Below are positions 1,499 through 64,000 of a stretch of DNA of 64,000 nt, one piece after another. The stretch is from Alphaproteobacteria bacterium (GTDB lineage Bacteria > Pseudomonadota > Alphaproteobacteria > RF32 > CAG-239). Position 1 is the first letter of the stretch. Each line of letters starts with the position of its first letter. Position numbers and translations under genes: made by a program. The stretch covers positions 81,263 to 145,262 of the forward strand of contig SUUJ01000002.1 in the NCBI GenBank assembly GCA_015062585.1, read 5' to 3'. The notes under the pieces were generated by a model. The model was not told where the DNA came from and did no database searches. It saw only the letters and a list, made by a program, of their open reading frames with translations.

Positions 1499-1608
1499 AT
1501 TATTTTTCCAAAAAAACGACTTATTGTTAATATTGCTTCAAATGATAGCATATCGCGCTAAAATCAAAAGCTAAAACAATAAGTCGTCAACAGTTTTTTT
1601 AACGTAAT

Positions 1609-3054
1609 TTAAGCTTCGAGAGTTCTTCTTAAAGCATCAACATTTTCAGCCAAAGAAACATCTTCCATGATAAGTTCTTCAACCTTGCGAACAGCGTGCA
1701 TAACCGTTGTGTGATCGCGGTCAAATTTGCGTCCGATTTCCGGCAAAGAGCGAGAAGTAAGCTGTTTTGCCAAATACATAGCAATTTGACGCGGACGAGC
1801 AACAGTACGAGCTCTGCGAGAAGATTGCATTTCTTTAACCGAAATATTGAAGTGTTCGGCTACTTTCTTTTGAATTTCATCAATTGTTGTGCGTTTATCA
1901 AAAGAGCGTAGCATATCTTTTAATATGTCTTGAGTCATATCCAAAGTTATCTCGTGATTGCTCAAAAGTTGGGAATGAGCAATAACTCTGCGCAAAGCAC
2001 CTTCCAACTCTCTGATGTTAGAGGTAATCTTGGTGGCTAAAAATTCAGCAACCTTTGGAGGAAGTTCAAGACCTAATTGTTTTGCTTTGTTATTTAAGAT
2101 TCCGATTCTCAAATCAAAATCTGTCGGGTGAATATCAGCAACCAAACCGCAACCCAAACGCGATTTTAAGCGTGCTTCGATTCCTTCCAAATCAGCCGGT
2201 GATTTGTCGGCAGAAATAATGATTTGACGGCCTTCTTCTATCAAAGAATTGAATGTGTAGAAAAATTCTTCTTGAGTGGTATCTTTTCCGCCCATAAATT
2301 GAACATCATCAACCATCAAAACATCAACTGAACGGAATTGCTCCTTAAATGCGGTAGTATCTTTGTAACGGAGAGCTCTTACAAATTTGTACATAAATTT
2401 TTCGGCTGACAAATATACAATATTTCTTGAAGGGTCTTGCTGTTTAATATGCCAGGCGATAGCGTGCATAAGGTGGGTTTTGCCTAATCCTACGCCTGAA
2501 TACAGGAACAATGGATTAAATGATATATTGCGGGATTCGGCAACTTTACGAGCAGCTGCATAAGCAAATTCATTGGTCTTTCCGACAACAAAATTATCAA
2601 AAGTATATTGAGGATTCAACGGAACAGACAATGAATCACCCATCAAGCCTTCATTAGTATTGGCCACAACAGATTTTGCACCTGATTGGTAAATGTTTTG
2701 CGGCATCGGAGATGTGGTGATCTTTTTTAATAAAGAGCGACAAGTAGGGTTATATAAACCTTTGTTAATAGCTAAATCTTGACCGGCTTGGACTATGAAG
2801 TTGATGTTTTTTATAGAAGGGTTTTTCTTTTCCCAAATTTTGTGGATTCTATCGCTGTAATTTGTAATTACCCAGTTACGCATAAAGCGGGTCGGAACGC
2901 AAATATTCATTGTTCCTTCGTTAAACGATCCTATCGTTAAAGGCTTGAGCCAACTGTCAAAGGCGGTATCACCTACTTCTGCTTTAAGTTGCTCACAAAT
3001 CTGTCCCCATTGATCTTGGACAGAGGCTTCGTTAACCAATGCTTCTTCAGCCAT
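1609..3054 (-). CDS. dnaA: Chromosomal replication initiator DnaA
   Basis: 481 aa. AAA+ Walker A GVGLGKTHL, the sensor region, and a C-terminal DNA-binding helix (HTTVMHAVRKVEEL). Confidence 0.95.
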   Translation of the reverse strand: MAEEALVNEASVQDQWGQICEQLKAEVGDTAFDSWLKPLTIGSFNEGTMNICVPTRFMRNWVITNYSDRIHKIWEKKNPSIKNINFIVQAGQDLAINKGLYNPTCRSLLKKITTSPMPQNIYQSGAKSVVANTNEGLMGDSLSVPLNPQYTFDNFVVGKTNEFAYAAARKVAESRNISFNPLFLYSGVGLGKTHLMHAIAWHIKQQDPSRNIVYLSAEKFMYKFVRALRYKDTTAFKEQFRSVDVLMVDDVQFMGGKDTTQEEFFYTFNSLIEEGRQIIISADKSPADLEGIEARLKSRLGCGLVADIHPTDFDLRIGILNNKAKQLGLELPPKVAEFLATKITSNIRELEGALRRVIAHSQLLSNHEITLDMTQDILKDMLRSFDKRTTIDEIQKKVAEHFNISVKEMQSSRRARTVARPRQIAMYLAKQLTSRSLPEIGRKFDRDHTTVMHAVRKVEELIMEDVSLAENVDALRRTLEA

Positions 3055-3594
3055 TTCTACTCCCCAATTTATTCTTAAATAATTAAAACCTAAAGTCAGT
3101 AAATCTATATATTTATAAAGAATATGTTATTACCAAAACCAAACAGTATTTATCCGTTATAAAAATGCAATGTGTTGCAAAACCGACTACAATCAAAAAC
3201 AAACATTCCCCTTATTTGCTTATGGTTGTATTTTTGCAATATCATTCTGTCTGCAATCTTTAACGATATAAAATGTACTTCTTTACATAGCATATATAAA
3301 TATAAAACTGACAACTAATATAATAGACGCTACTGTCAATGCTTTTAGATTCTATCAAAGTTTTATTTAATCAAAAAACTCTCTAACAAAGTGATTTGGA
3401 TATTAGATGAAAAAAAAAGAAAAACAATAGAACTTTTATAGAACATTGCAATTAATTTTCTTGACAAGGGATTCTTTAGGAGTCGAACGGATTCTGCCGC
3501 TTTTAGACAAAAAGAGCGCAAACCCTACGACTCTAATTTACAATAAAATAGAGGTTGGTTTGCGCTTAATAAAAAAAGCTGATTAAAGAGTATA

Positions 3595-3855
3595 TTACAA
3601 AGCTTTAATCTTTTGAGAAAGGCGAGAAATTTTACGAGATGCTGTATTCATCTTGAAAACGCCTTTTCTTACGGCACGCATCAATTCTGATTCGGCTGTT
3701 CTAAAAGCTGTGTTTGCCAACTCTTTATCACCGGCAACAATAGCGGCTTCCACTTTCTTAACGAAAGTGCGAACGCGATTTCTGCGAGCTCCGTTAATAA
3801 CGGCTCTTTTGTTGTTTCTTACGATTCTGCTTTTTGCAGACTTATGATTGGCCAT
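3595..3855 (-). CDS. rpsT: 30S ribosomal protein S20
   Basis: 86 aa, [36 protein letters not shown]... Basic S20 signature. Confidence 0.9.
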
Positions 3856-3979
3856 TTTTATTTTTCCATTTCAATTAAAAAAAGTTATTCCAATGTTTTA
3901 TAAATGTAATGCTTTATAGACTTGAACATCACCTAAAGTCAACAATAATTTTACTCAAAAGTCAGATTCTTTCGTTTTT

Positions 3980-4729
3980 TTATTTAAAATTATTCAAAAT
4001 ATTGGCAAATTCAGGCGTATTCATACTTAATCTGCAACTTTTAAGTTCTAATTCAAGGCCGTTTTGCAGGTTCATATTCTCTACCTGGCGCAAAGTTTCT
4101 TTTGCTTGAAGAACTGCTTGATAGGGCAACGAGGCGATTCTGTTTGCTATACGAACGGCTTCGGTATTTAAATCTTGTAATGGTACAACCCTGCTTATAA
4201 GACCGCAATAAGTTGCTTCTTCTGCGCTGATAGCTTTTCCGGTCAAAACAATATCCATAGTTTTTGCTTTACCGATTCTATGTATCAATCGGGAACAACC
4301 ACCAAAAGAAGGAATTGTTCCGATAGACAATTCCGGATATCCGAATTGAGCCGATTCTGCTGCTAAAATAATATCTCCGGCCAAAGCTAAGTCACAACCA
4401 AGTCCCAAAGCATAACCCGAAACAGCAACAATAATCGGTTTAGAACAATGTACGATTTTATTAAATTCGTCTTGCCAAGCTTTTAAGGCCAAGCTTTGTT
4501 GATTAACCTCACAACTTAGGTCTTTCATATCGATTCCGGCAGCAAAAACTTCGTCACTTCCCTTTATAATAATGCATCTTATCTCATCATTATAATCCCA
4601 ATCCTGAATTTGGTATGCTATTTCATTCAGCATTTCCAAATTTACGGCATTCATTTCGTTTGGTCTGTTTAAGGTAATCGTACCGATATATTCATCAACA
4701 TTTGTCAAAATAGTGTTGTTTCCATCCAT
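3980..4729 (-). CDS. Enoyl-CoA hydratase/isomerase (crotonase) family protein
   Basis: 249 aa with crotonase-fold motifs: the AAGIDMKDL oxyanion region and GYALGLGCDLALAGDIILAAESAQFGYPE. Confidence 0.8.
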   Translation of the reverse strand: MDGNNTILTNVDEYIGTITLNRPNEMNAVNLEMLNEIAYQIQDWDYNDEIRCIIIKGSDEVFAAGIDMKDLSCEVNQQSLALKAWQDEFNKIVHCSKPIIVAVSGYALGLGCDLALAGDIILAAESAQFGYPELSIGTIPSFGGCSRLIHRIGKAKTMDIVLTGKAISAEEATYCGLISRVVPLQDLNTEAVRIANRIASLPYQAVLQAKETLRQVENMNLQNGLELELKSCRLSMNTPEFANILNNFK

Positions 4730-5108: not shown

Positions 5109-5944
5109 TTTTGTAAGCTTTCACAATAAAAGGTCGATCTACCGGCAATGTTGATTGATTTGATTCCGCCGGTTGTTTTTATATCACATGTACAATGAGG
5201 ACATTTTTGCCCTGTTTTATTATAAACGCAATGCATATTTTGAAAATACCCAAGGCTTCCGTCCGGTTTTTTATAATCTCGTAGTGTCGAACCTCCGGCA
5301 TCAATAGCTTTTTGCAATACTTTTTTTGTATTTTCTATTATCAGGTTACATTCATCTAAAGTGATTTTATCGCAGGTCCTTGTCGGTAATATTCTGGATT
5401 CGTATAATATTTCCGAAGCATAAATGTTTCCGATTCCCGCGATTATGGTTTGATCCAAAAGAGCTGCTTTTATAAGCGTAGATTTTTTCTTTTGCAAATT
5501 ATTATAAAGATATTTTGCATCAATGACTTTGCTGAAAGGGTCGATTCCCACATTTTTGAGATATTTGTTTTTGCTGATTTCATCTTTTTTACAATATGTA
5601 AAAAGTCCGAAGCGACGCGGGTCATTATAGGTTAAAAAACCGTTAGATGTTTTAATAATTATGTGGTCGTGCTTATCAATAGCATTGATTTCGTCCGAAA
5701 TTTTTACTTTTCCGCTCATTCCCATATGCCAAATAATACAAAAATCATTGTCTAAATGAATGACAATATATTTTGCAATCCGTTCATAATTGATAATTTT
5801 AGCATTTTTTACGATGTGCTCCATGTCATCGGGGATTAAATCTCTTAATCTTCGATTCCTTATTTCTATATCCAAAATTTTGGCACATCCTATGCCTTTT
5901 TTAATAGCATTTTTTATAGTTTCGACTTCAGGTAATTCAGGCAT
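5105..5944 (-). CDS. mutM: Formamidopyrimidine-DNA glycosylase (Fpg/MutM)
   Basis: The internal Met gives the canonical MPELPEVETI N-terminus (catalytic Pro2, Glu3). C-terminal zinc finger CPHCTCDIKTTGGIKSINIAGRSTFYC. The upstream 23 codons of ORF 5105..6013 are probably not translated. Confidence 0.85.
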   Translation of the reverse strand: MPELPEVETIKNAIKKGIGCAKILDIEIRNRRLRDLIPDDMEHIVKNAKIINYERIAKYIVIHLDNDFCIIWHMGMSGKVKISDEINAIDKHDHIIIKTSNGFLTYNDPRRFGLFTYCKKDEISKNKYLKNVGIDPFSKVIDAKYLYNNLQKKKSTLIKAALLDQTIIAGIGNIYASEILYESRILPTRTCDKITLDECNLIIENTKKVLQKAIDAGGSTLRDYKKPDGSLGYFQNMHCVYNKTGQKCPHCTCDIKTTGGIKSINIAGRSTFYCESLQK

Positions 5945-6110
5945 GGCATCTTTCGTTGTTAAAAGAGGATTTATTAAAAAAAAGTATAATTGTTTTTTAC
6001 TTGAAAACAACACCTAAATTATTTGTTTTATCTAAAAATTAAAAAAACTTGCACTAATTTGTTTAATGCGTTAATTTGCTAAGAATTGTTGTTTATATGA
6101 ATAAGAAAAA

Positions 6111-6647
6111 ATGATTAGAAAAACGCGTCGTCAAAGTAAATATTTTGCCCCACAGAATGAAAACACCAAGCATATCTGTGATCATCCCGGATGCAACAAA
6201 TCCGGTGAATATCGCGCGCCCAAAGACAGGAAGTTGAAAGAATACTATTGGTTTTGCTTAGAGCATGTTCAAGAGTATAATGCCAAATGGAATTATTACG
6301 GTGACGATTCCTTTGTCGAAGAAGAGGATGTTTTCCGCCAAAAATTCAAGTTTTCATCTCATGTTAAATATAATTTCGGCTTTGATTTAAACGGAGATTA
6401 TGACTTTTTTAATAAATATTCTTACTCAAGCGCTAACGAGCATATTCGTCTTTCTGCAGACGAGCGCGAGGGCTTAAAACTTATGGAATTGTCATACGAT
6501 AATCTAAGTGCCGATTCTTTGAAAAAAGCGTATAAAATTGCCGTAAAAAAATATCATCCCGATTTGAACAAAGCAGATAAAACTTTGGAAGAAAAATTTA
6601 AGATTGTCAGCACATCGTACAAATCTTTATTAAGCAAACTGTCTTAG
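6111..6647 (+). CDS. J-domain protein with N-terminal Cys/His zinc-ribbon-like region
   Basis: C-terminal J domain ([19 protein letters not shown]) and N-terminal CDHPGC...FCLEH. Confidence 0.7.
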   Translation: MIRKTRRQSKYFAPQNENTKHICDHPGCNKSGEYRAPKDRKLKEYYWFCLEHVQEYNAKWNYYGDDSFVEEEDVFRQKFKFSSHVKYNFGFDLNGDYDFFNKYSYSSANEHIRLSADEREGLKLMELSYDNLSADSLKKAYKIAVKKYHPDLNKADKTLEEKFKIVSTSYKSLLSKLS

Positions 6648-7483
6648 CGTTGTTTGGCTCTGTCAAGATTCTTTTCTAACTGTTTAAGCCTTTCTTTTTT
6701 CAGCTTTTTGTCTTTTTCTTTATCAATATTGCGATTGTCTTTTCTTCCTGATTTTTCCAGAATGAGTTTAGCCGCTTTTTTATTGCTTTTTTCTTTTCCG
6801 ATATCAGCTATATCTTTAGCGTTCATTTTTTCCGATAAAGAGTTTAAGTCGCCTTCTGTATTAAGAATACCTGACTTTTTCATCTTTTCCAGACCGGTTA
6901 TCAGATTTTGAGCTTCTTTTGAAGAAAGATTCTCAGTTTTAAGTTTTGTCTGTGAAGCAATATTTTCCAATAAGCTGTTTTCAAAAGTTCTGGCATCAAA
7001 AGAAACATCCATGGTCTTTTGCGCAACAACCTTTTTGCTTATTTCTTTCAGTCCAAGCTCTTTTGAGCGTTGGTTTGCTTGCAAGATACCGGCAACCTTT
7101 CCGGCAGTTTCTTGCATTTTGAGATTCTCTATACTTTTATTTGCGTTTAATCTTGTTTTTTCTTCATCGCTTAGCGCGTTAAATAAAGAATTACCCATTT
7201 CATCAAAAGAAAAATCAAAGATTACAGAAGTTTTTCCGTCTTCCTCGTCTTCATCATCATCGTCATAAACATCTCTGATTTTACTTTTAATTTTTTTCAA
7301 ATTTGGAGTTATTTTAGTAATGCTTTTGGTAACTTTTTTGCTGTTTTTATCAGAGTCGGCAGCAACCATGGCTTTTTTTTGATCAAGCCTTCGAGATATG
7401 CGGGTATTTTTCGAAAAACCTTTTCCGATTCCCCAATCTATATTTGAGCTACTATCTTCTTCGTTCATAGTTTTTCCAAACAT
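6644..7483 (-). CDS. Hypothetical highly charged (Lys/Asp/Glu-rich) protein
   Basis: 279-aa ORF, low complexity, with an acidic DDDDEDEEDG stretch. Convergent with the J-domain gene. No recognised domain. Confidence 0.45.
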   Translation of the reverse strand: MFGKTMNEEDSSSNIDWGIGKGFSKNTRISRRLDQKKAMVAADSDKNSKKVTKSITKITPNLKKIKSKIRDVYDDDDEDEEDGKTSVIFDFSFDEMGNSLFNALSDEEKTRLNANKSIENLKMQETAGKVAGILQANQRSKELGLKEISKKVVAQKTMDVSFDARTFENSLLENIASQTKLKTENLSSKEAQNLITGLEKMKKSGILNTEGDLNSLSEKMNAKDIADIGKEKSNKKAAKLILEKSGRKDNRNIDKEKDKKLKKERLKQLEKNLDRAKQR

Positions 7484-7525
7484 TAGCTATCACTATTTAT
7501 AGGTATTGTTACATAAATTTATATT

Positions 7526-9217
7526 TTAATCAATGCTTTTATATACAATAAGAAGCGCACCATCCGACAGGTTTTTTACGGATACTTGTATTTTTTTATC
7601 ATCCAACCGCTTCAAAGTTATAGTTTTGGAAGTGCGATTAAGCATATTAGCACTAATGCCTTTCTTTACTTTTTCCCATTCATCTTTATTGGCAAAAAAT
7701 TGTTGTTGGCTATCCAAAATCTCTTCAAAAGTAGGTTCTCCGGCTAAGAAAACTTTGTCAGCATCCCACATTTTTATATAAGCATCATTATAAAAACTTA
7801 AACGACTGTTTGCGCCGAATATAAGGACTCCGTCAAAAATACCGGTTAAAATTTCATTTTGTACGGACATCAAGGCATTGTAGGCCGATGTTGTCGCAAT
7901 TCTGTCGGTAATATCTTCAAAAGCAAAAACTACGCCGCCCATCGGATACGGAGCCTGCATTCTGCGAAAAGTTTTACCGTTTGGCAAATGCATCAAATCG
8001 CTCACCGGTTCAATAATTTGCAAAAATTTCTTTTGTTCATCTTTTTTATAAGCTTTATAATCAGGAACCTCGGGCAGCATTCTATTTTCTCTGATATAAT
8101 CTAAAAAGCTCAAATAAGTTTGCGGAGCATTAAGCCAAGCGGAATCAAGTTTCCACAAGGTAGTAAACGCCTGGTTGTTAAATTGAAGACTCATGTCCTG
8201 ATTAAATACGGCAAAAGCCGTTCCCAAGGCTTGTAAAATTTCTAATTGAGCTTCTTGGTGCTGTTTTAAATTTCGTTTTAACTCGTCCAGTTCGTTTATG
8301 TTAATAAGGCAACCGGCACTATAAGTTTTTTCCAAATTTTGTTCAGGATAAAAGGGTGTTTCATAAGCTTCCATTGCAACTCGCGAACCTTTTATTACAA
8401 CACCGACCTTTGTTTTTGAGCCTCGTTTGCTTTTATGAACACCGGCTGCCAAGTTTCTGGATACGCTTTCACCGCTTGTTCCGGTAATTTCCAAGTGCTC
8501 TTCAATAATATTATTTCGGTTTTTATCAGGAATAAATTCTACAAATTTTTTATTACAATATGATATATCAAGATTTTCATCTCTGAGCCACACGGCAAAA
8601 GGCAGATTATCTAAAATATCTTGTTGCAACAGGTGTTTTTTCTCAGTGTCGGATAATTCTTTTTCCAAAGTTTTTATGCGGTTTGTCGCAAAACTGACAT
8701 CTCTAAACCATATCATATCGCAATAAATATTGCCGTCAGCACCGTTAATTCGGTTTCCTTCCAATCTGATGTATTTGTTTGAAGATTTTAGTAAAAAGTA
8801 ATCTTCAAAGGCAACACCTTCTTCTTTTAACAGTCCGACATATTTTAATATTTTTTTTGCATCATCTTTGTAAAAGCTTTTCAAAACTTCGTTAAAGTCT
8901 GATTTTACACCTTTTTCCAAACCCAAAATAACAGCCAATCGACGAGAGCATCTTTCGGTAATATATTTTCTCGGGTCATTAACTTTTTCATCAGGATAAA
9001 TAAAGGCAAAATATCCGTCATGCGAGGCGTACAATGTTTCGGCATAACGCTCTCTGTCACGGCGCAAGAAATAATTTTTTTGCTTTAGTTTCAAAAAGAA
9101 GAAAAACAACAAAAACAAAGAACATATTAAAAAAACAACGATTCCGGCGATGAGGTACCAAAGCTCCGGAGCTGCGTAAAACATATTCAAAAGTAATTCT
9201 TTATCCATTTTGCCCAA
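7526..9217 (-). CDS. Membrane-anchored PAS-domain protein (no recognisable kinase or output domain)
   Basis: 563 aa, with one N-terminal TM helix (LWYLIAGIVVFLICSLFLLFFFFL) followed by PAS-like repeats. No HisKA/HATPase or GGDEF/EAL motifs seen. Confidence 0.55.
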   Translation of the reverse strand: MGKMDKELLLNMFYAAPELWYLIAGIVVFLICSLFLLFFFFLKLKQKNYFLRRDRERYAETLYASHDGYFAFIYPDEKVNDPRKYITERCSRRLAVILGLEKGVKSDFNEVLKSFYKDDAKKILKYVGLLKEEGVAFEDYFLLKSSNKYIRLEGNRINGADGNIYCDMIWFRDVSFATNRIKTLEKELSDTEKKHLLQQDILDNLPFAVWLRDENLDISYCNKKFVEFIPDKNRNNIIEEHLEITGTSGESVSRNLAAGVHKSKRGSKTKVGVVIKGSRVAMEAYETPFYPEQNLEKTYSAGCLININELDELKRNLKQHQEAQLEILQALGTAFAVFNQDMSLQFNNQAFTTLWKLDSAWLNAPQTYLSFLDYIRENRMLPEVPDYKAYKKDEQKKFLQIIEPVSDLMHLPNGKTFRRMQAPYPMGGVVFAFEDITDRIATTSAYNALMSVQNEILTGIFDGVLIFGANSRLSFYNDAYIKMWDADKVFLAGEPTFEEILDSQQQFFANKDEWEKVKKGISANMLNRTSKTITLKRLDDKKIQVSVKNLSDGALLIVYKSID

Positions 9218-21496: not shown

Positions 21497-21913
21497 TTAC
21501 GCAGATTTGAGGCTATTCTCTATAGAATCCTTGAAATGTTTGAAAAAATCACCATCCTTTTCAAATAGCATAACTTTCAACATATGCAAGTGTCCCATCA
21601 TAAAACAAGCCTCAGGGTCATCAACGCTTTCTGGTGAAAATTCTTGCGCTTCACAATCCATTTGAAGGAACGAGGAAAGTGTCTTTCCATCAAAAGTATT
21701 TGTTAAAACACCTTCTTTGGATAATTTTTCACTTACTCTCTTCAATAGAGAAGCTTTTTCATCAAAATCACCCATAAAAATAGGTGCTTTACCTTTAACT
21801 TCTCCTTGCTCGCTTACCAAATAGATGAATGACTTAAGAGTGCCATCTTTTACGTTGATACCTTTCTTTTCAAGATTTAGAAAAACTTTTTGTTGTTGTT
21901 GTTGTGTTGTCAT
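21497..21913 (-). CDS. Hypothetical protein (poly-Gln N-terminus)
   Basis: 138 aa, MTTQQQQQKVFLNL... No recognised domain. Confidence 0.4.
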   Translation of the reverse strand: MTTQQQQQKVFLNLEKKGINVKDGTLKSFIYLVSEQGEVKGKAPIFMGDFDEKASLLKRVSEKLSKEGVLTNTFDGKTLSSFLQMDCEAQEFSPESVDDPEACFMMGHLHMLKVMLFEKDGDFFKHFKDSIENSLKSA

Positions 21914-21949: not shown

Positions 21950-22503
21950 ATTAGTTATCAAAGATAAACTTCCACTAGCTTACGCAAGCGGAATTAACCA
22001 TCCCGAACTTCGTTCGTCCAGCCTTAAAGCTTCGCAAGCCTAATGGCTGGGTTGGATTGTCTACATCTACTTGCTTACGCAGGTAGTGTTACATACGAAG
22101 CATAAAAAATATTATTCTGTCACAAATTAACGCAAACATTAACAAAGTAAACGCAAAAAGCAAAAACTTATGAAAACGAAATACATAATAAGGACAGAAT
22201 AATATTTTATGATAAGTATATTATACCATGTTTACCCTCCCTGGTCAAGAGATGTAACTTTTTGAAAAACAAGGATAAAATAAAAAATAGCTGTCATAAC
22301 TTGAGCGAATGAAATAAAATAAAATAAAATGTCATTCCTCGCTCGGCGCTTTTGCGTCCGTGCGTCAAGGAATCTCATCTTTGCGCCAGCTACTAATTAA
22401 AGAAAAAAATTGAAGATCCCTTGACCTCACTTCGTTCGGAGGGATGACAGCTTAAATTTATGTAATGCCTTGAGTGAGGATATGAGGGAGACTAGGCATT
22501 TTC
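21950..22503. repeat. Intergenic repeat desert with several short palindromic repeat elements of the same family as at 62.5-63.5 kb
   Basis: Copies at 22322-22390 (AAATAAAATGTCATTCCTCGCTCGGCGCTTTTGCG...) and 22412-22503 (GAAGATCCC...GGGATGAC...ATGTAATGCCTTGAG...AGACTAGGCAT). A 14-bp inverted repeat, AATATTATTCTGTC / GACAGAATAATATT, lies at 22108-22121 and 22193-22206. Confidence 0.75.
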
Positions 22504-22506
22504 TGC

Positions 22507-23070
22507 TTAGCTTAATTTAATTTCTTCTAAAACACAGTCAAAACTCTCGTCTTTTGGTGAACAGGCATAAGCCCCGACCTCAACCGGCTGTTTTATTTCA
22601 GAATGATTTACAACGCGTATCTGCGCATATTTTTCATCATCTAACGCGTAATATACTACAAAATTTGATTCTCTGCGTTTTACTCTGAAGTTGATAGTTT
22701 TTATATCATCACTTAATGAAACGGTTGACCAATCACAATAACCGTTATTAGCAACAACAACTCCCAATTGTACGATGCCTGCTCCCATTGGCAAAAGTCC
22801 TGCTTTTATCCAATTTTTGCTGTCATATCGGATCATAACTCCACATTGAGCCGAATCAACAGTCTTTTCAAAAGACCATTTTGCATCGACGACAAAATTA
22901 TCGTTTTTATTACAAGCAAAAAAATGCCCATCTTCTTTTGATATGCCAAAAAGACTGTTTTGCCAAAAATCAGTATGAGGTTTGGTGGTAATAAGCAAGC
23001 CTTTTTCAATAAATTCAACATTTTTAGGCTCGTTAATCCAATCAAAATTTCTTATTTCTTCCAGTAACAT
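22507..23070 (-). CDS. DUF1349-like (concanavalin-fold) protein
   Basis: 187 aa, [20 protein letters not shown]... Resembles the DUF1349 / 3-keto-disaccharide hydrolase-like family. Its start overlaps the cbpA-like stop (TAATG). Confidence 0.5.
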   Translation of the reverse strand: MLLEEIRNFDWINEPKNVEFIEKGLLITTKPHTDFWQNSLFGISKEDGHFFACNKNDNFVVDAKWSFEKTVDSAQCGVMIRYDSKNWIKAGLLPMGAGIVQLGVVVANNGYCDWSTVSLSDDIKTINFRVKRRESNFVVYYALDDEKYAQIRVVNHSEIKQPVEVGAYACSPKDESFDCVLEEIKLS

Positions 23071-59385: not shown

Positions 59386-61263
59386 ATGAAACAAAAGAAA
59401 CTTCAAATCCTAGCGTGGATTGGTATTGTTATGGCAATGTTTGCCATTGAAAGTTGCGAAATGCAAAACGCCCCAGACTTAGATTTTAATCAACAGGGGA
59501 TTTATGTCAAGGGAGACGGCAAAGACAGTATTCCTTATGCTGTACATGATACCGTTTTCATCCCAAGTGACAGTACTGTTATAAACTTTATTGACAGTAC
59601 TGTTATAAACTTTATTGACAGTACGGTTATTACTTACATAGACAGTGTTATATACGATACTTTGCCCAGCGGTGAAGTGGACACAATCTACATCTACCGT
59701 AAGCCAAAGATCAACTGTGTTAAATTTTTTGAGGGACAAATATTCCTTCACGACAGCACAGGGCTTGTCTATGCAATGAGTTTCCCATATTCAATGAATA
59801 TTGCGGACACTCTGAGGTTTAAGACAGAAGCTGATACTATCAGTATGCTGACAGGCAATACCTTTATTTTCAAAGACTTAGGCACTTCTAAAGTTGATGT
59901 CCGTTTTTCTAACGAAACAGATATCATCACATCAAGTGTTGATGTTCCTTGGGTTATGGGATTGACCATTAACGGCGATTATGTTGAAACTTGTGTCGAT
60001 TACACCTTAAATGTTTCGATACTGGAAAGAAAGACCGAAAATGGGTACCTGTACCTCAAGGTCAACTACGCAATCACCTTCGAGGATGATTACGGAATTA
60101 CTAGGTCCGCGATTTCTAAAAATCAGGTAATTGTTGCTCCTATCAAGGAGGAAGAAAAACCTGAGCCTGAGAATGTACGCACTAAAGATATCGACTATGT
60201 TATAGATACAGCTCAGACCCACCAAGGTGGTAGATTGACAGCAATCATCAACATTGTCAATTCTTTAGAGACTATTGAAGATTCCACTATTTCTGTAGAA
60301 GCTCCGATAGTTTTATCCATCAAAGCAGGTGACTCAACATCTGTTATCGGCTCAAATTTTGATGTTACTCCAGGTGTTCTAAGATTGGAGGAGTCAAAAT
60401 GTGAGGCTAAAAGTACCACCAAAGACGGTGTTACAATTAGCTGGAATGAATACACGGTAATGTGTCCTCAGGACATTGTTGCTGGTGGAGAGCATTTGAA
60501 TGTCGTACAAACCGTTACTTATACTAACGATTATGTAATCACATTCGAAGACACCACAGTAGCTATTCCTTTAACCTTGGATGTACAACAAATATCCAAG
60601 AGCGATGATGGAGATGTTAAGGCAGAGGGTGGTTATGCAAAGCAAGATGTTAAGTTGACTTATGAGGCCAGCTTGACAGATATGCAAACAATGGTTGAAC
60701 TGACAGACAAAGCTGAGCAAAAGATCAGTATTCTCTTCAAGGCGATTAGCTTTGATGGTCAGGTAGTTGATACTGTTTATCAGACAGCTACTTATCCGGA
60801 CATTAATGAGATTCCGATAATTTGCACTGCTGTGTTGACTCACAGTGAGACAAATCCATCTCAGCACTATGTCCACTACCGCTTTGAAGGTAGCGCAAAC
60901 ACATCTTGGACTTCAGTAACACTGACAGACGCTGAATATGATTATATAATAAATCATAAAGGCGCACCTATGGCTGGCCAATGGGCTCTTACTGTTTGCT
61001 ACCCAAATGGCAAAACAGGAGATGTCGTAGTCGGTTATTTGGACGATCATTGTCCAATAGAGGTTATGTATTATAGCCCCGGATATAACGACTACACGGT
61101 AATGACCAGTCAGAACACAATGTTTGGCGCTCTTAACCGTGCAGTTGTTTGCAGTGGTTCAAGATTGTCAAACGGACTGATAGAGTTAAAAAACCCAACT
61201 GATGTTAAGTTGGGCGAGAAAGTGATATATCCTGCACAAACAAGTGCTATCTACTTTCTCTAA
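59386..61263 (+). CDS. Large lipoprotein with in-frame 24-bp tandem repeats (DSTVINFI x3)
   Basis: Signal peptide MKQKKLQILAWIGIVMAMFAIESC. Tandem DNA repeat GACAGTACTGTTATAAACTTTATT at 59570-59645. Beta-rich composition. Confidence 0.5.
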   Translation: MKQKKLQILAWIGIVMAMFAIESCEMQNAPDLDFNQQGIYVKGDGKDSIPYAVHDTVFIPSDSTVINFIDSTVINFIDSTVITYIDSVIYDTLPSGEVDTIYIYRKPKINCVKFFEGQIFLHDSTGLVYAMSFPYSMNIADTLRFKTEADTISMLTGNTFIFKDLGTSKVDVRFSNETDIITSSVDVPWVMGLTINGDYVETCVDYTLNVSILERKTENGYLYLKVNYAITFEDDYGITRSAISKNQVIVAPIKEEEKPEPENVRTKDIDYVIDTAQTHQGGRLTAIINIVNSLETIEDSTISVEAPIVLSIKAGDSTSVIGSNFDVTPGVLRLEESKCEAKSTTKDGVTISWNEYTVMCPQDIVAGGEHLNVVQTVTYTNDYVITFEDTTVAIPLTLDVQQISKSDDGDVKAEGGYAKQDVKLTYEASLTDMQTMVELTDKAEQKISILFKAISFDGQVVDTVYQTATYPDINEIPIICTAVLTHSETNPSQHYVHYRFEGSANTSWTSVTLTDAEYDYIINHKGAPMAGQWALTVCYPNGKTGDVVVGYLDDHCPIEVMYYSPGYNDYTVMTSQNTMFGALNRAVVCSGSRLSNGLIELKNPTDVKLGEKVIYPAQTSAIYFL

Positions 61264-61330
61264 TATGTAGAACCCGCCGGCATATTTGCAAAGATTTTTT
61301 TGTAAATATGCTAGCATAAATCCTAGAATT

Positions 61331-62440
61331 ATGGCAAAAAAGAAATGGCTGTTATTGATTATCATGATAGCCTCTATAAGCGCACACGCGCAGTACACAG
61401 CATCCCACAATTTTTACGCTGTTACAGAAGCGGAGATGGGGATTGACTCGGTAAAAACCGATCCAAGATATTGGGCGGGATTTAATATATCCAACACACT
61501 TGTATGGCCCAACGGCCTCATGGTTGATCTTGGAGGCGCTTATGCCCTCTCGTCAAAATATGAAGTCAAAGGAACTTTTAATACGGGTATCGGATACAAA
61601 TTTACCGATTGGTTTAACGCTAAAGCTGTTCTAAAAAATGGTTTCGCAACCTCATTAGACAGTATTAGCTTTCATAATACCAAGAACGATGACTGGTATT
61701 ATGAATACCGAAAGAGTCCGTATTATTTAGTTAACTTTAATTTAGAAGCCATCTTCAAAATTAAAGACTTTATTATAGGATTATCAGCTGGTTATAACCA
61801 CTATACTCCTATAGGCAACATAAATAAGACTTTAGGTGAAAATTGGGTGTTGGAAAACTCTTCAATAGCCCCTAAAAACAGCTTAACCTTAGGGTTAAAT
61901 GTTGGATATTCTATCCCCAACACAGTAAAAAAAGACGGAGACAATCCGTTTGAGTTTTTTGCTGAAACTGGTTGGAATAGTCTTTTCGGAGCCAAAGCCG
62001 GAATTGCCACAGGTTATACCTGGCGTATGAACTATTGGCTTATGTTGGAGGCATCAACCGGAATTGATTATTATTGGCAAAGCCAAAGTTTGGCTGCCAA
62101 CATCAAGTTCGGACCAAAATTTGCTCCTTGGGGTTATAATTCAAAAGTTATTTTTGCTCTTTATGGGCAAGTTGCTTTTGGTGAGTACTATGGCTTGAAA
62201 TACAATGTACAAGCTGAAAACCCTGAGCGACTGGATGTAGGAGGTTTGAATAATACTTTGGGTCTCAACCTTATGTTGACACCTGAAGTTTCACTAAACC
62301 TCAACCGTGTTGGTATATTGTTTGGTTGCCGAGGCGGATATTTTTTCCGTTCCGGATTTGACGGTCACAATGTGACGGCAACCGTAAGCGATTACAAAGG
62401 GTGGAACATCGAGCCTTATCTGGCGATAAGGATCAATTAG
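61331..62440 (+). CDS. Putative outer-membrane beta-barrel protein
   Basis: Start at MAKKKWLLLIIMIASISAHAQ (Bacteroidetes-style signal peptide). Alternating amphipathic beta-strand pattern, Gly/Tyr/Asn-rich. Confidence 0.45.
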   Translation: MAKKKWLLLIIMIASISAHAQYTASHNFYAVTEAEMGIDSVKTDPRYWAGFNISNTLVWPNGLMVDLGGAYALSSKYEVKGTFNTGIGYKFTDWFNAKAVLKNGFATSLDSISFHNTKNDDWYYEYRKSPYYLVNFNLEAIFKIKDFIIGLSAGYNHYTPIGNINKTLGENWVLENSSIAPKNSLTLGLNVGYSIPNTVKKDGDNPFEFFAETGWNSLFGAKAGIATGYTWRMNYWLMLEASTGIDYYWQSQSLAANIKFGPKFAPWGYNSKVIFALYGQVAFGEYYGLKYNVQAENPERLDVGGLNNTLGLNLMLTPEVSLNLNRVGILFGCRGGYFFRSGFDGHNVTATVSDYKGWNIEPYLAIRIN

Positions 62441-62461: not shown

Positions 62462-62500
62462 AGAGAGCCGACACCTTGTGTGTCGACTCTCTTTTTTTTT
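62462..62500 (+). terminator. Rho-independent terminator
   Basis: AGAGAGCCGACACCTTGTGTGTCGACTCTCTTTTTTTTTT. Confidence 0.7.
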
Positions 62501-62520
62501 ATATCAAAACAACAACGCCA

Positions 62521-62760
62521 TCACCTGAGAGAATAAATAATGTTATTCCTCGCGCGGCGCTTTGCCGTAAAAACATATGTCATCGCCTGAGTGAGCTTGC
62601 GAACGAGGTTAGCGATCTTCAAATTATTCTTAAAAACAAGGAAGATCCCTGGAATTTTTTGTTGCACAAAAAATAGGGATGACTTTGTTGTTGTTTTATG
62701 TCATGCCTTGAGCGGAACTTTAGTGTAGCGAGACTAGGCATCTTCAAATTAGATTAAATT
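62521..62760. repeat. Cluster of palindromic repeat elements (upstream arm of the array flanking the GIY-YIG gene)
   Basis: 62527-62575: GAATAAATAATGTTATTCCTCGCGCGGCGCTTTGCCG. 62577-62622: ATGTCATCGCCTGAGTGAGCTTGCGAACGAGGTTAGCGATCTTC. 62641-62746: GAAGATCCCT...GGGATGACTTTGTTGTTGTTT...ATGTCATGCCTTGAGCGG...AGACTAGGCATCTTC. Confidence 0.75.
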
Positions 62761-62802
62761 ATTACATTGACTTAATAAATTGATATATATTATATTTTTT
62801 AT

Positions 62803-63096
62803 ATGAAAACAATGTATGTATATATAATGACCAATATAAATAATACCACACTGTATGTTGGTGTTACAAATGATTTGTGTCGTCGAGTATATGAACATAA
62901 AAATGATATATTTAAAGGTTTTACAGCAAAATATTCTCTCCATAAATTAGTTTATTTTGAAACTTTTGAAGATGAATTATCTGCTATTGCTTGTGAAAAA
63001 TATTTAAAAAAATGTTTTAGAAAAACAAAAGAAAAACTAATCAGCAAAAAGAATCCTCAATGGAATGATTTGTCTGATGATTTTAAACTAATCTGA
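62803..63096 (+). CDS. Standalone GIY-YIG nuclease domain protein (COG2827/YhbQ-like)
   Basis: 97 aa: YVYIMTN..LYVGVTNDLCRRVYEHKN. GIY-YIG motifs with conserved Arg and Glu. Confidence 0.8.
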   Translation: MKTMYVYIMTNINNTTLYVGVTNDLCRRVYEHKNDIFKGFTAKYSLHKLVYFETFEDELSAIACEKYLKKCFRKTKEKLISKKNPQWNDLSDDFKLI

Positions 63097-63490
63097 AGAT
63101 CGCTAACCTCGTTCGCAAGCTCACTCAAGCGATGACTTATTTTTTATAAGAAACAACAACAAAGTCATCCCTCGATTGCGTTGAGCAATCGTCTAGGGAT
63201 CTTCAAATTAAATAAAACAAGAACCGCGATTTATGTTTTTTAGCTTTTTTTGACCGGAAACTATCCTTTTATGCACCCAAAGTCAGCCAACGGATGTGAA
63301 GGGCACATCCGGTTGAAAAAAGCGTATAAAAAAACATCTTGAGCGGTGACTTTTGGTTACTTTTGGTCATTCAAAAGTAACATAAGAATAATTTGAAGAT
63401 GCCTAGTCTCGCTACACTAAAGTTCCGCTCAAGGTATGACCTTATTTTTTTCGCCAAAGCGCCGAGCGAGGAATGACATTATTTATTCAC
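63095..63490. repeat. Inverted copies of the same palindromic repeat elements (downstream arm)
   Basis: 63095-63204 is the reverse complement of the 62577-62746 pattern (GAAGATCGCTAACCTCGTTCGCAAGCTCACTCA...AAAGTCATCCCTCG...GGGATCTTC). 63395-63488 is the reverse complement of 62527-62575 plus the 62700-62746 core (GAAGATGCCTAGTCTCGCTACACTAAAGTTCCGCTCAAGGTATGAC...CGCCGAGCGAGGAATGACATTATTTATTC). Additional perfect hairpins at 63290-63315 and 63352-63381. Confidence 0.75.
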
Positions 63491-63618
63491 TTAAGACGAC
63501 GACATTTTTTATCATTGCTTTGGTGGTAGCGACGCGGAAATTTCGGCATACTTATAAAAAAAGCGGAACTTATTTTAATCAAAAGCCCCGCTTTTACTCT
63601 AGGAGTTAGTGCTGTTTA

Positions 63619-64000
63619 TTAAAAAGTAAATCTTATACCGGCATACCATTCATGACCGTTTATTTCACCTTCTTCAATCTTACCCAAGGTATAATAACGA
63701 TAACCGGCATCAATATTCAAACATTTGTTAATTCTCAATGTCAAACCGGCACCGGCCTGCCAAGAAAATTTACTATCTTCACTAGTAAAGGTATTCTGAT
63801 TGTTTCTAATTTTAAATTCTATCTCGCTATAACCGATACCACCGTTGATATAAGGGCTTATCCAATAGTTTGGCATAAAGTCAATATAGCCGTTCAACAT
63901 CAATGACTGAGCCTCAACATAAGTCGAGTTTGCCCAATTTCCGACACTATTGTAGCTTTCTTCTTCAGCGTTATCTCTAACAACATATTCTATTTCACCG
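63619..64000 (-). CDS. Outer-membrane beta-barrel protein (OmpA/OmpW-like porin family), C-terminal part; gene continues past window end
   Basis: Ends ...GHEWYAGIRFTF with the proteobacterial C-terminal Phe signature. The minus-strand reading frame stays open to position 64000. Confidence 0.55.
   Translation of the reverse strand, partial: GEIEYVVRDNAEEESYNSVGNWANSTYVEAQSLMLNGYIDFMPNYWISPYINGGIGYSEIEFKIRNNQNTFTSEDSKFSWQAGAGLTLRINKCLNIDAGYRYYTLGKIEEGEINGHEWYAGIRFTF

Follow-up and report, generated by a model that had tools for sequence, protein, structure and literature searches.

A probable Ssn-type nuclease gene and its variant GTC-tagged hairpins in an alphaproteobacterial genome

Why should a small, stand-alone nuclease gene be bracketed on both sides by inverted copies of one family of palindromic repeats? 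This question is raised by a locus in a stretch of 64,000 nucleotides (nt) of contig SUUJ01000002.1 (positions 81,263 to 145,262), which comes from an alphaproteobacterium, has a G+C content of 36% and is called the window throughout. The original prediction for this DNA recognized an open reading frame (ORF) for a GIY-YIG nuclease between repeat copies, and suggested that the arrangement might be a mobile cassette, a homing endonuclease or a gene that had simply entered a repeat hotspot. We conclude that the locus is the published Ssn nuclease and hairpin system in a new host, where it is accompanied by a variant hairpin that the published motif misses. The ORF is very probably an ssnA-type gene (hereafter ssn), and the units around it are very probably its cognate hairpins, as variant forms of the elements named NTS or SRM and grouped with the CGTC-tagged repetitive extragenic palindromes (REPs). 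The notion that a pairing of nuclease and CGTC-tagged REPs had not been described was dropped, as this pairing is published in the Ssn paper (PMC11893778).

The Ssn proteins were introduced by Chenal et al. (Nat Commun 2025; PMC11893778) as single-domain GIY-YIG nucleases of CDD family cd10448 that cut only single-stranded DNA (ssDNA), just 5' of a 'GTC-tagged' hairpin (NTS/SRM), and whose genes are typically flanked by such hairpins. Specificity for ssDNA was demonstrated for four Ssn enzymes, and flanking repeats were bound and cut in vitro (PMC11893778). The SsnA protein of Neisseria meningitidis (94 amino acids) binds the NTS hairpin CGTCATTCCCGCGMAVGCGGGAATCYRG as ssDNA only and cuts a few nt upstream of it; the GTC before the palindrome is most important for cutting and the C after the palindrome for binding, and cutting is lost in the Y6A, Y17A and E64A variants (PMC11893778). 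Among ssnA homologues, 71% have at least one SRM nearby and 42% have SRMs on both sides, and a genome-wide association of gene and repeat was reported (PMC11893778). With regard to biological function, SsnA of N. meningitidis lowers transformation by repeat-carrying DNA, and in Neisseria the cuts shorten homology arms and reduce allelic replacement of repeat-bracketed genes (PMC11893778). The family has also been proposed as a toolbox of sequence-specific single-strand DNA cutters.

The protein encoded by ssn has the features of this family. Its 97 amino acids include, as had been predicted, a GIY-YIG domain (Pfam PF01541, E=9.4e-16, 58.3 bits against a cut-off of 22.6), which covers residues 4-76; conservation continues beyond it as far as L90, and no DNA-binding domain is added. 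The Tyr, Tyr, Arg, Glu and Asn residues of the GIY-YIG superfamily are present as Y7, Y18, R28, E65 and N84, each invariant among 85 homologues, and the length falls in the range of single-domain Ssn proteins (about 90-150 amino acids). As a proxy for N. meningitidis SsnA (CAX49033.1) we used the N. gonorrhoeae orthologue (L212:1489-1770). This gene emerged from a tblastn search of a plasmid collection (PLSDB), which matched a single site in a 2.17-Mb N. gonorrhoeae record; we took the 94-residue ORF at that site as the SsnA orthologue given its Y6, Y17 and E64 residues and the canonical NTS copies around it. The record (NZ_CP119140.1, 2,168,363 base pairs, bp) is filed in PLSDB as a plasmid, is evidently a chromosome and bears almost no annotation. 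In a BLASTP alignment of the window protein with this proxy, 89 of 94 residues align without a gap at 43% identity (E=9e-26), which lies within the homology threshold applied by the Ssn authors (E<1e-10 over >75% of SsnA; PMC11893778), and Y7, Y18 and E65 align with the catalytic residues Y6, Y17 and E64. When the 64-kb window was searched with tblastn, ssn was the sole GIY-YIG gene of its kind, in one copy.

The same protein features bear on the suggestion that the gene encodes a free-standing homing endonuclease of the GIY-YIG type. Such a selfish gene would cut a double-stranded target in genomes lacking it, and would have reached a repeat-rich spacer by chance. GIY-YIG is a classic homing-endonuclease fold, and the protein does show a weak match to the group-I-intron endonuclease model TIGR01453. 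However, this match reaches only 23.3 bits against a cut-off of 56.05 and covers residues 6-39 only, and a search of NCBIfam with the protein gave sub-threshold matches only. Furthermore, a single domain of 97 residues without a DNA-binding extension is unlike I-TevI or the Seg proteins; the protein is an ungapped homologue of SsnA, which leaves double-stranded DNA uncut, and its characterized relatives cut ssDNA only (PMC11893778). No phage homologue was found in 50,697 phage records, and the association of such genes with repeats is systematic across phyla, as described below. We consider the homing endonuclease explanation very improbable, and the selfish element that the original prediction raised on the basis of this fold finds no backing here.

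What, then, are the repeats? The gene is embedded in a mosaic of hairpin repeats of roughly 40-50 nt, with inverted partner copies on both sides (Table 1). Each unit begins with GTC and an arm of AT and four further nt. After an insert of 20-28 nt comes the matching arm, which is complementary to those four and ends in AT, and the unit closes with C and, in most cases, TTCAAATTA. Matches to the pattern GTCATNNCY-N14-44-RNNATCT number 10 in the window where 0.52 are expected (none of 100 shuffles reached 10), and eight of these ten matches fall into two clusters, with six of the eight surrounding ssn. Three inverted pairs connect the two flanks: B/B' (62700-62751 and 63389-63440; 52 nt, 98% identical with one mismatch), A/A' (62570-62634 and 63081-63145; 65 nt, 89%) and XH/H'X' (62528-62591 and 63428-63491; 64 nt, 81%). 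The overall order is X H A(+) C(-) B(+), the gene, A'(-) D(+), a spacer, B'(-) H' X', in which A/A' and B/B' are interleaved and ssn lies between two head-to-head dimers, C-/B+ and A'-/D+. Counted along this order, C spans 62643-62683, A' 63097-63136 and B' 63397-63440, slightly less than the extents in Table 1. Unit B is the closest unit upstream of the gene and directs its tag away from it. Downstream, the final codons and the stop codon of ssn come from the tail of A'.

These assignments confirm the palindromic repeat family that had been proposed on both sides of the gene and correct several of its details. The inverted pairs exist, at coordinates that had been given correctly to within a few bases, but they interleave rather than nest. 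The downstream block, which had been taken as the reverse complement of an upstream repeat of about 170 bp, matches it over unit A (about 60 nt) and a 22-nt stretch (62675-62696 and 63151-63172) and not over the remainder. Likewise, the family is real, but several of its supposed copies (X, H, H' and X') are 5' half-units only. A search of Rfam at gathering thresholds found nothing at the ssn locus, and two tRNAs elsewhere in the window; the hairpins are thus unexplained by any described RNA family.

Table 1. Coordinates of the features at the ssn locus and at the second repeat cluster of the window.
Feature	Position	Strand	Description
Second repeat cluster, without a nuclease gene	22293..22501		Half unit 22293; T unit 22331-22375 (+); unit 22414-22448 (-); GTAAT variant 22462-22501 (+)
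X, H: two 5' half-units	62517..62567	+	A-type start GCCATCACCTGAGAG, linker AATAAATAAT, T-type start GTTATTCCTCGCGCGGCGCTTTGCCG; inverted partner 63452-63503
Unit A	62579..62626	+	GTC, basal stem ATCGC(C)/GCGAT, 23-nt loop, C, tail TTCAAATTA
Unit C	62636..62683	-	GTC, ATCCCT, inner helix ATTTTTTGT/ACAAAAAAT, 3-nt bulge TCC, AGGGAT, C; dimer with B
Unit B	62700..62751	+	GTC, ATGCCT, 28-nt loop, AGGCAT, C, tail TTCAAATTA
Promoter-like site TTGACT-18-TATATT	62767..62796	+	10 of 12 consensus positions; consensus match only
ssn gene	62803..63096	+	Single-domain GIY-YIG, Ssn family; Y7, Y18, R28, H32, E65, N84 conserved
Unit A'	63085..63136	-	Inverted copy of A; tag outward from ssn; head-to-head dimer with D
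Unit D	63164..63210	+	GTC, ATCCCT, inner helix CGATTGC/GCAATCG, bulge TCT, AGGGAT, C, tail TTCAAATTA
178-nt spacer	63211..63388		No second copy in window; missing from same locus of sister strain L001
Unit B'	63389..63440	-	Inverted copy of B, one mismatch
H', X': two 5' half-units	63452..63503	-	T-type GTCATTCCTCGCTCGGCGCTTTGGCG, A-type GTCGTCGTCTTAAGTGA; inverted partner of 62517-62567

Two hairpin shapes are represented among the units. In the bulged type (C, D and T), a second helix follows the 6-bp basal stem directly, and on the 3' side three nt bulge out. As ssDNA hairpins these units fold with z scores of -4.5 to -5.4 (unit C at -10.5 kcal/mol, z=-4.5; unit D at -11.7 kcal/mol, z=-5.4). 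In the open-loop type (A and B), the basal stem alone pairs, and it closes a loop of 23-28 nt of the form TGAGYG...GAGACT. Regardless of shape, all eight intact units of the window retain GTC, the AT...AT stem and the following C, which are the positions required for cutting and binding in Neisseria, with TGTC preceding the stem in four of the eight and AGTC or GGTC in the others. Of 187 distinct long units pooled from the window, related contigs and metagenome contigs, 59 share the bulged geometry, in which the inner helix follows without a gap on the 5' side and a bulge of 3 nt interrupts the 3' side. The bulge is TCA in 33, TCC in 15 and TCT in five of all the units that have one. The inner helices of bulged units diverge widely in sequence, and their complementarity is kept. 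Finally, the structural hallmarks of SRMs are found in all eight intact units, namely a GTC immediately 5' of the palindrome, a C immediately 3' of it, and a hairpin-forming inverted repeat of 20-50 nt that flanks ssn.

Several points nevertheless weigh against the view that these units are the cognate hairpins of an Ssn enzyme. The published SRM search pattern, HGTCWYN(0-2)YYVSBRHN(0-5)WNVSBRGN(0-2)RNCYNB, has no match in the window, in the locus of the sister strain (L001) or in those of its other closest relatives (L003, L012 and L013), and finds nine matches in the 3.3-kb Neisseria locus (L212) that served as a positive control. Because the pattern misses the window units, we infer rather than observe cognate recognition of these longer, bulged or large-loop hairpins, and for the same reason we class the repeats as SRM-like: they are a variant of the SRM/CGTC-REP kind, and not SRMs in the strict published sense. 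Units A and B fold no better than shuffled sequence beyond the 6-bp basal stem. In Neisseria, a change of the palindrome sequence that kept the hairpin abolished activity (PMC11893778), which fits uneasily with a freely variable inner helix in the window units. Moreover, cutting of the window hairpins by the window protein is presumed by analogy, and a role in transformation is known for N. meningitidis only (PMC11893778).

We examined 80 loci that carry homologues of 50-80% identity from many phyla, including Bacteroidota, Nitrospirota, Omnitrophota, Saccharimonadia, Ignavibacteriota, Chloroflexota and several classes of Pseudomonadota, and repeats common to both flanks of the gene are frequent among them. 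Using a strict motif (GTCAT, a 4-nt stem, a loop, the complementary stem and AT), we counted 154 units in the real sequences and 18 in shuffled sequence, with a density of 1.32 per kb within 500 bp of the gene compared with 0.14 per kb farther out. Within the same loci, a unit is present in 39% of the gene-adjacent non-ORF segments and in 9% of the others (odds ratio 6.4, p=7e-8). The layout is also consistent. Upstream, the unit closest to the gene shares its strand ('+') in 24 of 29 loci; downstream, the closest unit has the reverse orientation ('-') in 19 of 23. The median gaps to the gene are 29 nt upstream and 14 nt downstream. The window follows this common '+ gene -' layout, with B+ upstream and A'- downstream. 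The link between nuclease gene and palindromic repeat is therefore no chance hotspot, and it recurs across phyla.

This association bears on the simplest alternative, in which an unrelated housekeeping GIY-YIG gene happens to reside in a repeat-tolerant spacer. Such a coincidence would be in keeping with the presence of repeats away from ssn and with the finding that 12 of the 17 metagenome contigs with at least three units have no ssn homologue within the stretch that was fetched. (The underlying scan, GTCATSCCT-N14-44-AGGSATCTTC, was too permissive, in that most of its 120 matches were single and in unrelated GC-rich contigs, and the analysis was restricted to contigs with at least three units.) However, coincidence does not account for the enrichment of units beside the gene relative to other segments of the same loci, for their consistent orientation and spacing, or for the published genome-wide association and the in vitro binding and cutting of flanking repeats (PMC11893778). 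We find this explanation hardly credible, and with it falls the mere hotspot that had been suggested. The counter-scenario attached to the original prediction was that repeats would occur independently of the gene and that relatives with the gene at a syntenic position would lack flanking repeats. Its first half is what we see, in the second cluster of the window (22293-22501) and in a cluster of the sister strain (L001 6450-6860), but relatives with a syntenic ssn still keep flanking repeats.

Comparison with close relatives adds a further view of the locus. In the sister strain L001, Ssn is 97% identical and the gene occupies the same locus, with differing repeat content. In a second, more distant lineage (L002-L011), Ssn is 71% identical, and units of this kind, some of them in direct orientation, lie on either side of the gene. 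The downstream neighbour of ssn in the window is a convergent gene for a beta-barrel outer-membrane protein (start 63619, minus strand), and in both lineages ssn adjoins the 3' end of this orthologous gene, in opposite orientations (window 62803-63619; L002 2127-3294). An inversion between inverted repeat copies could account for this flip, as could a larger rearrangement.

A flip of this kind invites the proposal that the locus is an invertible switch, in which recombination between A/A' or B/B' turns the gene or its promoter around. The inverted, nearly identical 52-nt pair B/B' would suit such a device, as would the orientation of ssn relative to the outer-membrane-protein gene, which in the window and L001 is opposite to that in L002-L011. 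Yet the orientation is the same in the two available strains (window and L001), and the promoter-like site, being part of the segment, would turn together with the gene, such that inversion would not switch expression. No invertase gene was seen nearby. In addition, the other flank is not conserved between the lineages, and a larger rearrangement explains the flip equally well. We judge an invertible switch to be highly improbable.

The repeats themselves are dispersed. The second cluster of the window (Table 1) sits between ORFs at 21497-21913(-) and 22507-23070(-), near dnaK and dnaJ. In L001, a further gene-free cluster (6450-6860) lies past the outer-membrane-protein gene and contains the A'-D module in a copy that is 95% identical. 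Beyond full hairpins, we find 5' half-units, which consist of the tag and the 5' arm with no 3' arm, stacked upstream of full hairpins. Over all loci, such 5' halves recur 23 times upstream and seven times downstream of full hairpins, compared with five and five for 3' halves. Stacks are present in the window (X, H and H', X'), in L001 (4670-4790) and in locus L027 (2855-2990 and 3309-3560), and in Nitrospirales the half-units form arrays with a 21-25-nt period. In L001 the half-units act as a repeated 62-nt module. T-type units always follow the TGAGYG(A) of an A/B-type half at a fixed junction with the joint AATRAATAAT, and between the window strain and L001 repeat units are replaced with the junctions fixed. 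True nested insertion was considered as an origin of the half-units and rejected, since the expected 3' halves are missing. Half-unit stacks, fixed junctions and unit replacement are what repeated rounds of cleavage and rejoining at the tag should leave behind, which falls short of proof that they arose in this way.

Some of this evidence also feeds the strongest rival, which overlaps with the reading of the locus as an Ssn system. REPtrons are elements in which genes for RAYT (TnpA-REP, a Y1 HUH transposase) are flanked by GTAG-tagged REPs. In the manner of a REPtron or an insertion sequence, the repeat-gene-repeat unit could be its own mobile element, at present or until recently, with the nuclease moving the gene and spreading the hairpins. 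The Ssn authors themselves noted that NTS-ssnA-NTS resembles insertion sequences and REP/RAYT (PMC11893778). In many phyla, inverted hairpins lie close against the ORF and point their tags away from it, proteins of 50-60% identity are spread across distant phyla, and some loci have two ssn copies. Homologues of 74-85% identity occupy unrelated neighbourhoods, often at contig ends, and each has bulged units alongside. The differing repeat content of two strains at fixed junctions and the accumulation of 5' half-units upstream of full hairpins could be read in the same way.

Set against these observations is the absence of the usual marks of a mobile element. The outer edges (62517 and 63503) have no target-site duplication, with CAACAAC and ATTTTTT as the flanks, so that a check proposed with the original prediction came out negative. 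No transposase or integrase was found among the neighbouring genes with recorded domains, the rest of the window not being annotated. Without a duplication or a nearby recorded transposase domain, the locus does not qualify as an insertion sequence or a miniature inverted-repeat transposable element (MITE). The phage records gave no match, and 32 of the 33 plasmid-collection matches are to non-mobilizable records, several of which are 2-5 Mb in size. The gene occurs once in the 64-kb window and its orthologue once in the 2.17-Mb N. gonorrhoeae record, and even in lineages with only 71% protein identity ssn has kept its place at the 3' end of the outer-membrane-protein gene. In one lineage the flanking units are direct, in another they are inverted, and the element would thus have no fixed ends. 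To our knowledge, strand transfer is not an activity of any nuclease of the GIY-YIG superfamily. We regard a present or recent mobile element as unlikely, and the MITE-like or cassette-like unit of the original prediction, like the homing endonuclease, is not supported. Past mobility is conceivable in view of the unrelated neighbourhoods, the loci with two copies and the opposite orientation of ssn beside the outer-membrane-protein gene in the two lineages.

Returning to the interpretation that ssn and its flanking units form an Ssn system, a mechanism can be proposed by homology with the enzymes of Neisseria, N. elongata, N. wadsworthii and Wolbachia. When DNA becomes single-stranded, as in incoming transforming DNA or in replication or repair intermediates, a unit would fold into a hairpin. 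The enzyme would then bind the base of this hairpin, reading the stem that starts with AT and the C that follows it, and would cleave the hairpin-bearing strand a few nt to the 5' side of the GTC tag, sparing double-stranded DNA and the complementary strand. Because units of both orientations lie on both sides of ssn, ssDNA would be cut on the two flanks of the gene whichever strand is exposed. The sequences themselves show that the protein belongs to the family, that its catalytic residues and the DNA determinants are conserved, how the locus is laid out and that the repeats are dispersed; both the activity of the enzyme and its biological role in the present organism are presumed here from its characterized relatives. 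Flanking hairpin copies beside ssn are the usual signature of the Ssn family.

Given that the work adds one Ssn and hairpin pair from an uncultured gut alphaproteobacterium to a system already described, it seems appropriate to ask what is gained. We believe that the useful extra is the shape of the hairpin. The enzyme seems to require no more than the tag, the basal stem of 6 bp and the C after it, whatever the distal helix. If true, this bears on how specificity is read and would mean that cognate repeats are more numerous than the published motif search counts. The half-unit stacks and fixed junctions also offer a handle on whether Ssn creates CGTC-tagged repeats, for which no dedicated enzyme had been found in 2013. 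A bolder, combined proposal is that the Ssn clade of gut or rumen Alphaproteobacteria uses a structurally distinct recognition element missed by the SRM definition, which combines a basal stem of 6 bp and a 3-nt TCM bulge with a distal helix that is free to vary, and that half-unit stacks, fixed junctions and unit replacement are scars of cutting and rejoining by Ssn. We advance this combination tentatively, as a conjecture that would more probably fail than hold. If true, many Ssn homologues now counted as repeat-less have divergent cognate hairpins, and Ssn is the long-missing enzyme that generates or spreads CGTC-tagged REPs.

The proteins of the clade differ at a few positions as well. Compared with most homologues, M4, T15 and E58 are specific to the clade, and residues 69-76 read KKC[FY]RKTK in the closest clade members instead of KKWxRxWK. 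Judged from the alignment, these positions are candidates for specificity toward the variant hairpin. Regarding expression, the promoter-like site of Table 1 ends its -10 box 7 nt from the ATG of ssn, without a Shine-Dalgarno sequence, and both features are found in the two lineages (window 62767-62805; L003 2965-3003), so the ssn mRNA may be leaderless.

Other features of the neighbourhood can be recorded more briefly. The 178-nt spacer between D and B' contains an imperfect hairpin at about 63288-63315. Upstream of ssn lies an ORF of 384 amino acids (61286-62440) with a terminator at 62469-62485, preceded by one of 625 amino acids (59386-61263) that has a short tandem peptide repeat near its N-terminus (DSTVINFI DSTVINFI DSTVITYI). 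Neither of these repeat-adjacent proteins has a Pfam match, and relative to their L001 counterparts (3435-4589 and 1551-3407) they are 64% and 80% identical, respectively, compared with 97% for Ssn; this divergence recalls the raised diversity of dRS3-adjacent genes in Neisseria. In L001, the stretch 5691-7634, which continues the window past position 64000, includes the gene for the outer-membrane protein, an Opa-like beta-barrel, with repeat clusters on both sides. Beyond this gene are genes for type IV pilus parts, namely a pilin-like protein (PilS), T2SSF and T2SSE.

How, finally, does the locus compare with known systems? A distant resemblance is to other small stand-alone GIY-YIG domains such as UPF0213 and Slx1-like proteins. 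The nearest solved structure, and the only one found by sequence, belongs to this group (UPF0213/BH0048, PDB 1zg2) and is distant (E=5e-4, 24 bits, against E=9e-26 for SsnA), and we know of no repeat association described for the group. The homing endonucleases I-TevI and the Seg proteins are multi-domain enzymes that cut double-stranded homing sites in phage or intron contexts. The window protein shares their GIY-YIG catalytic core and, unlike them, is single-domain and lacks phage homologues. REPtrons are closer in layout, as both consist of a low-copy gene bracketed by inverted copies of a genome-dispersed hairpin that is recognized as single-stranded DNA. However, fold and chemistry are unrelated, as Ssn is a GIY-YIG hydrolytic nuclease and RAYT an HUH tyrosine transesterase. 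In addition, the tag is GTC in the window rather than GTAG, and movement of repeats by Ssn is without evidence so far.

Taken alone, the repeats compare with the CGTC-tagged REPs that Di Nocera, De Gregorio & Rocco described in 2013 (PMC3733652), which include dRS3 of Neisseria and RPE-4 and RPE-6 of Rickettsia, have Alphaproteobacteria as their main hosts, and were reported with no dedicated enzyme. The window units share with them a terminal (C/T)GTC tag that stays unpaired, a stem with AT as its first and last two letters, and a prevalence of head-to-head dimers. They depart from the published stems of 8-9 bp, loops of 4-5 nt and CCA tail (PMC3733652) in having a 6-bp basal stem, a loop of 23-28 nt or a bulged second helix, and the tail CTT, and in having an Ssn gene among them.

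For gene and repeats together, the closest counterpart is the Ssn/NTS system of Neisseria, from which the window differs mainly in hairpin detail. Its hairpins measure 40-50 nt instead of 28 nt and have a 6-bp basal stem followed by a variable inner helix with a 3-nt TCM bulge or by a 23-28-nt loop, and their tail is CTTC rather than the published CYRG/CCA. Its host is an uncultured, AT-rich gut or rumen alphaproteobacterium, and its protein has KKC[FY]RKTK where most homologues have KKWxRxWK. The points of agreement are as follows. Both have a single-domain GIY-YIG protein of about 95 amino acids that aligns without gaps and with coinciding catalytic Y, Y and E, a gene flanked on both sides by GTC-tagged hairpins with their tags outward, and repeats dispersed to other loci beside genes for outer-membrane and pilin-like proteins.

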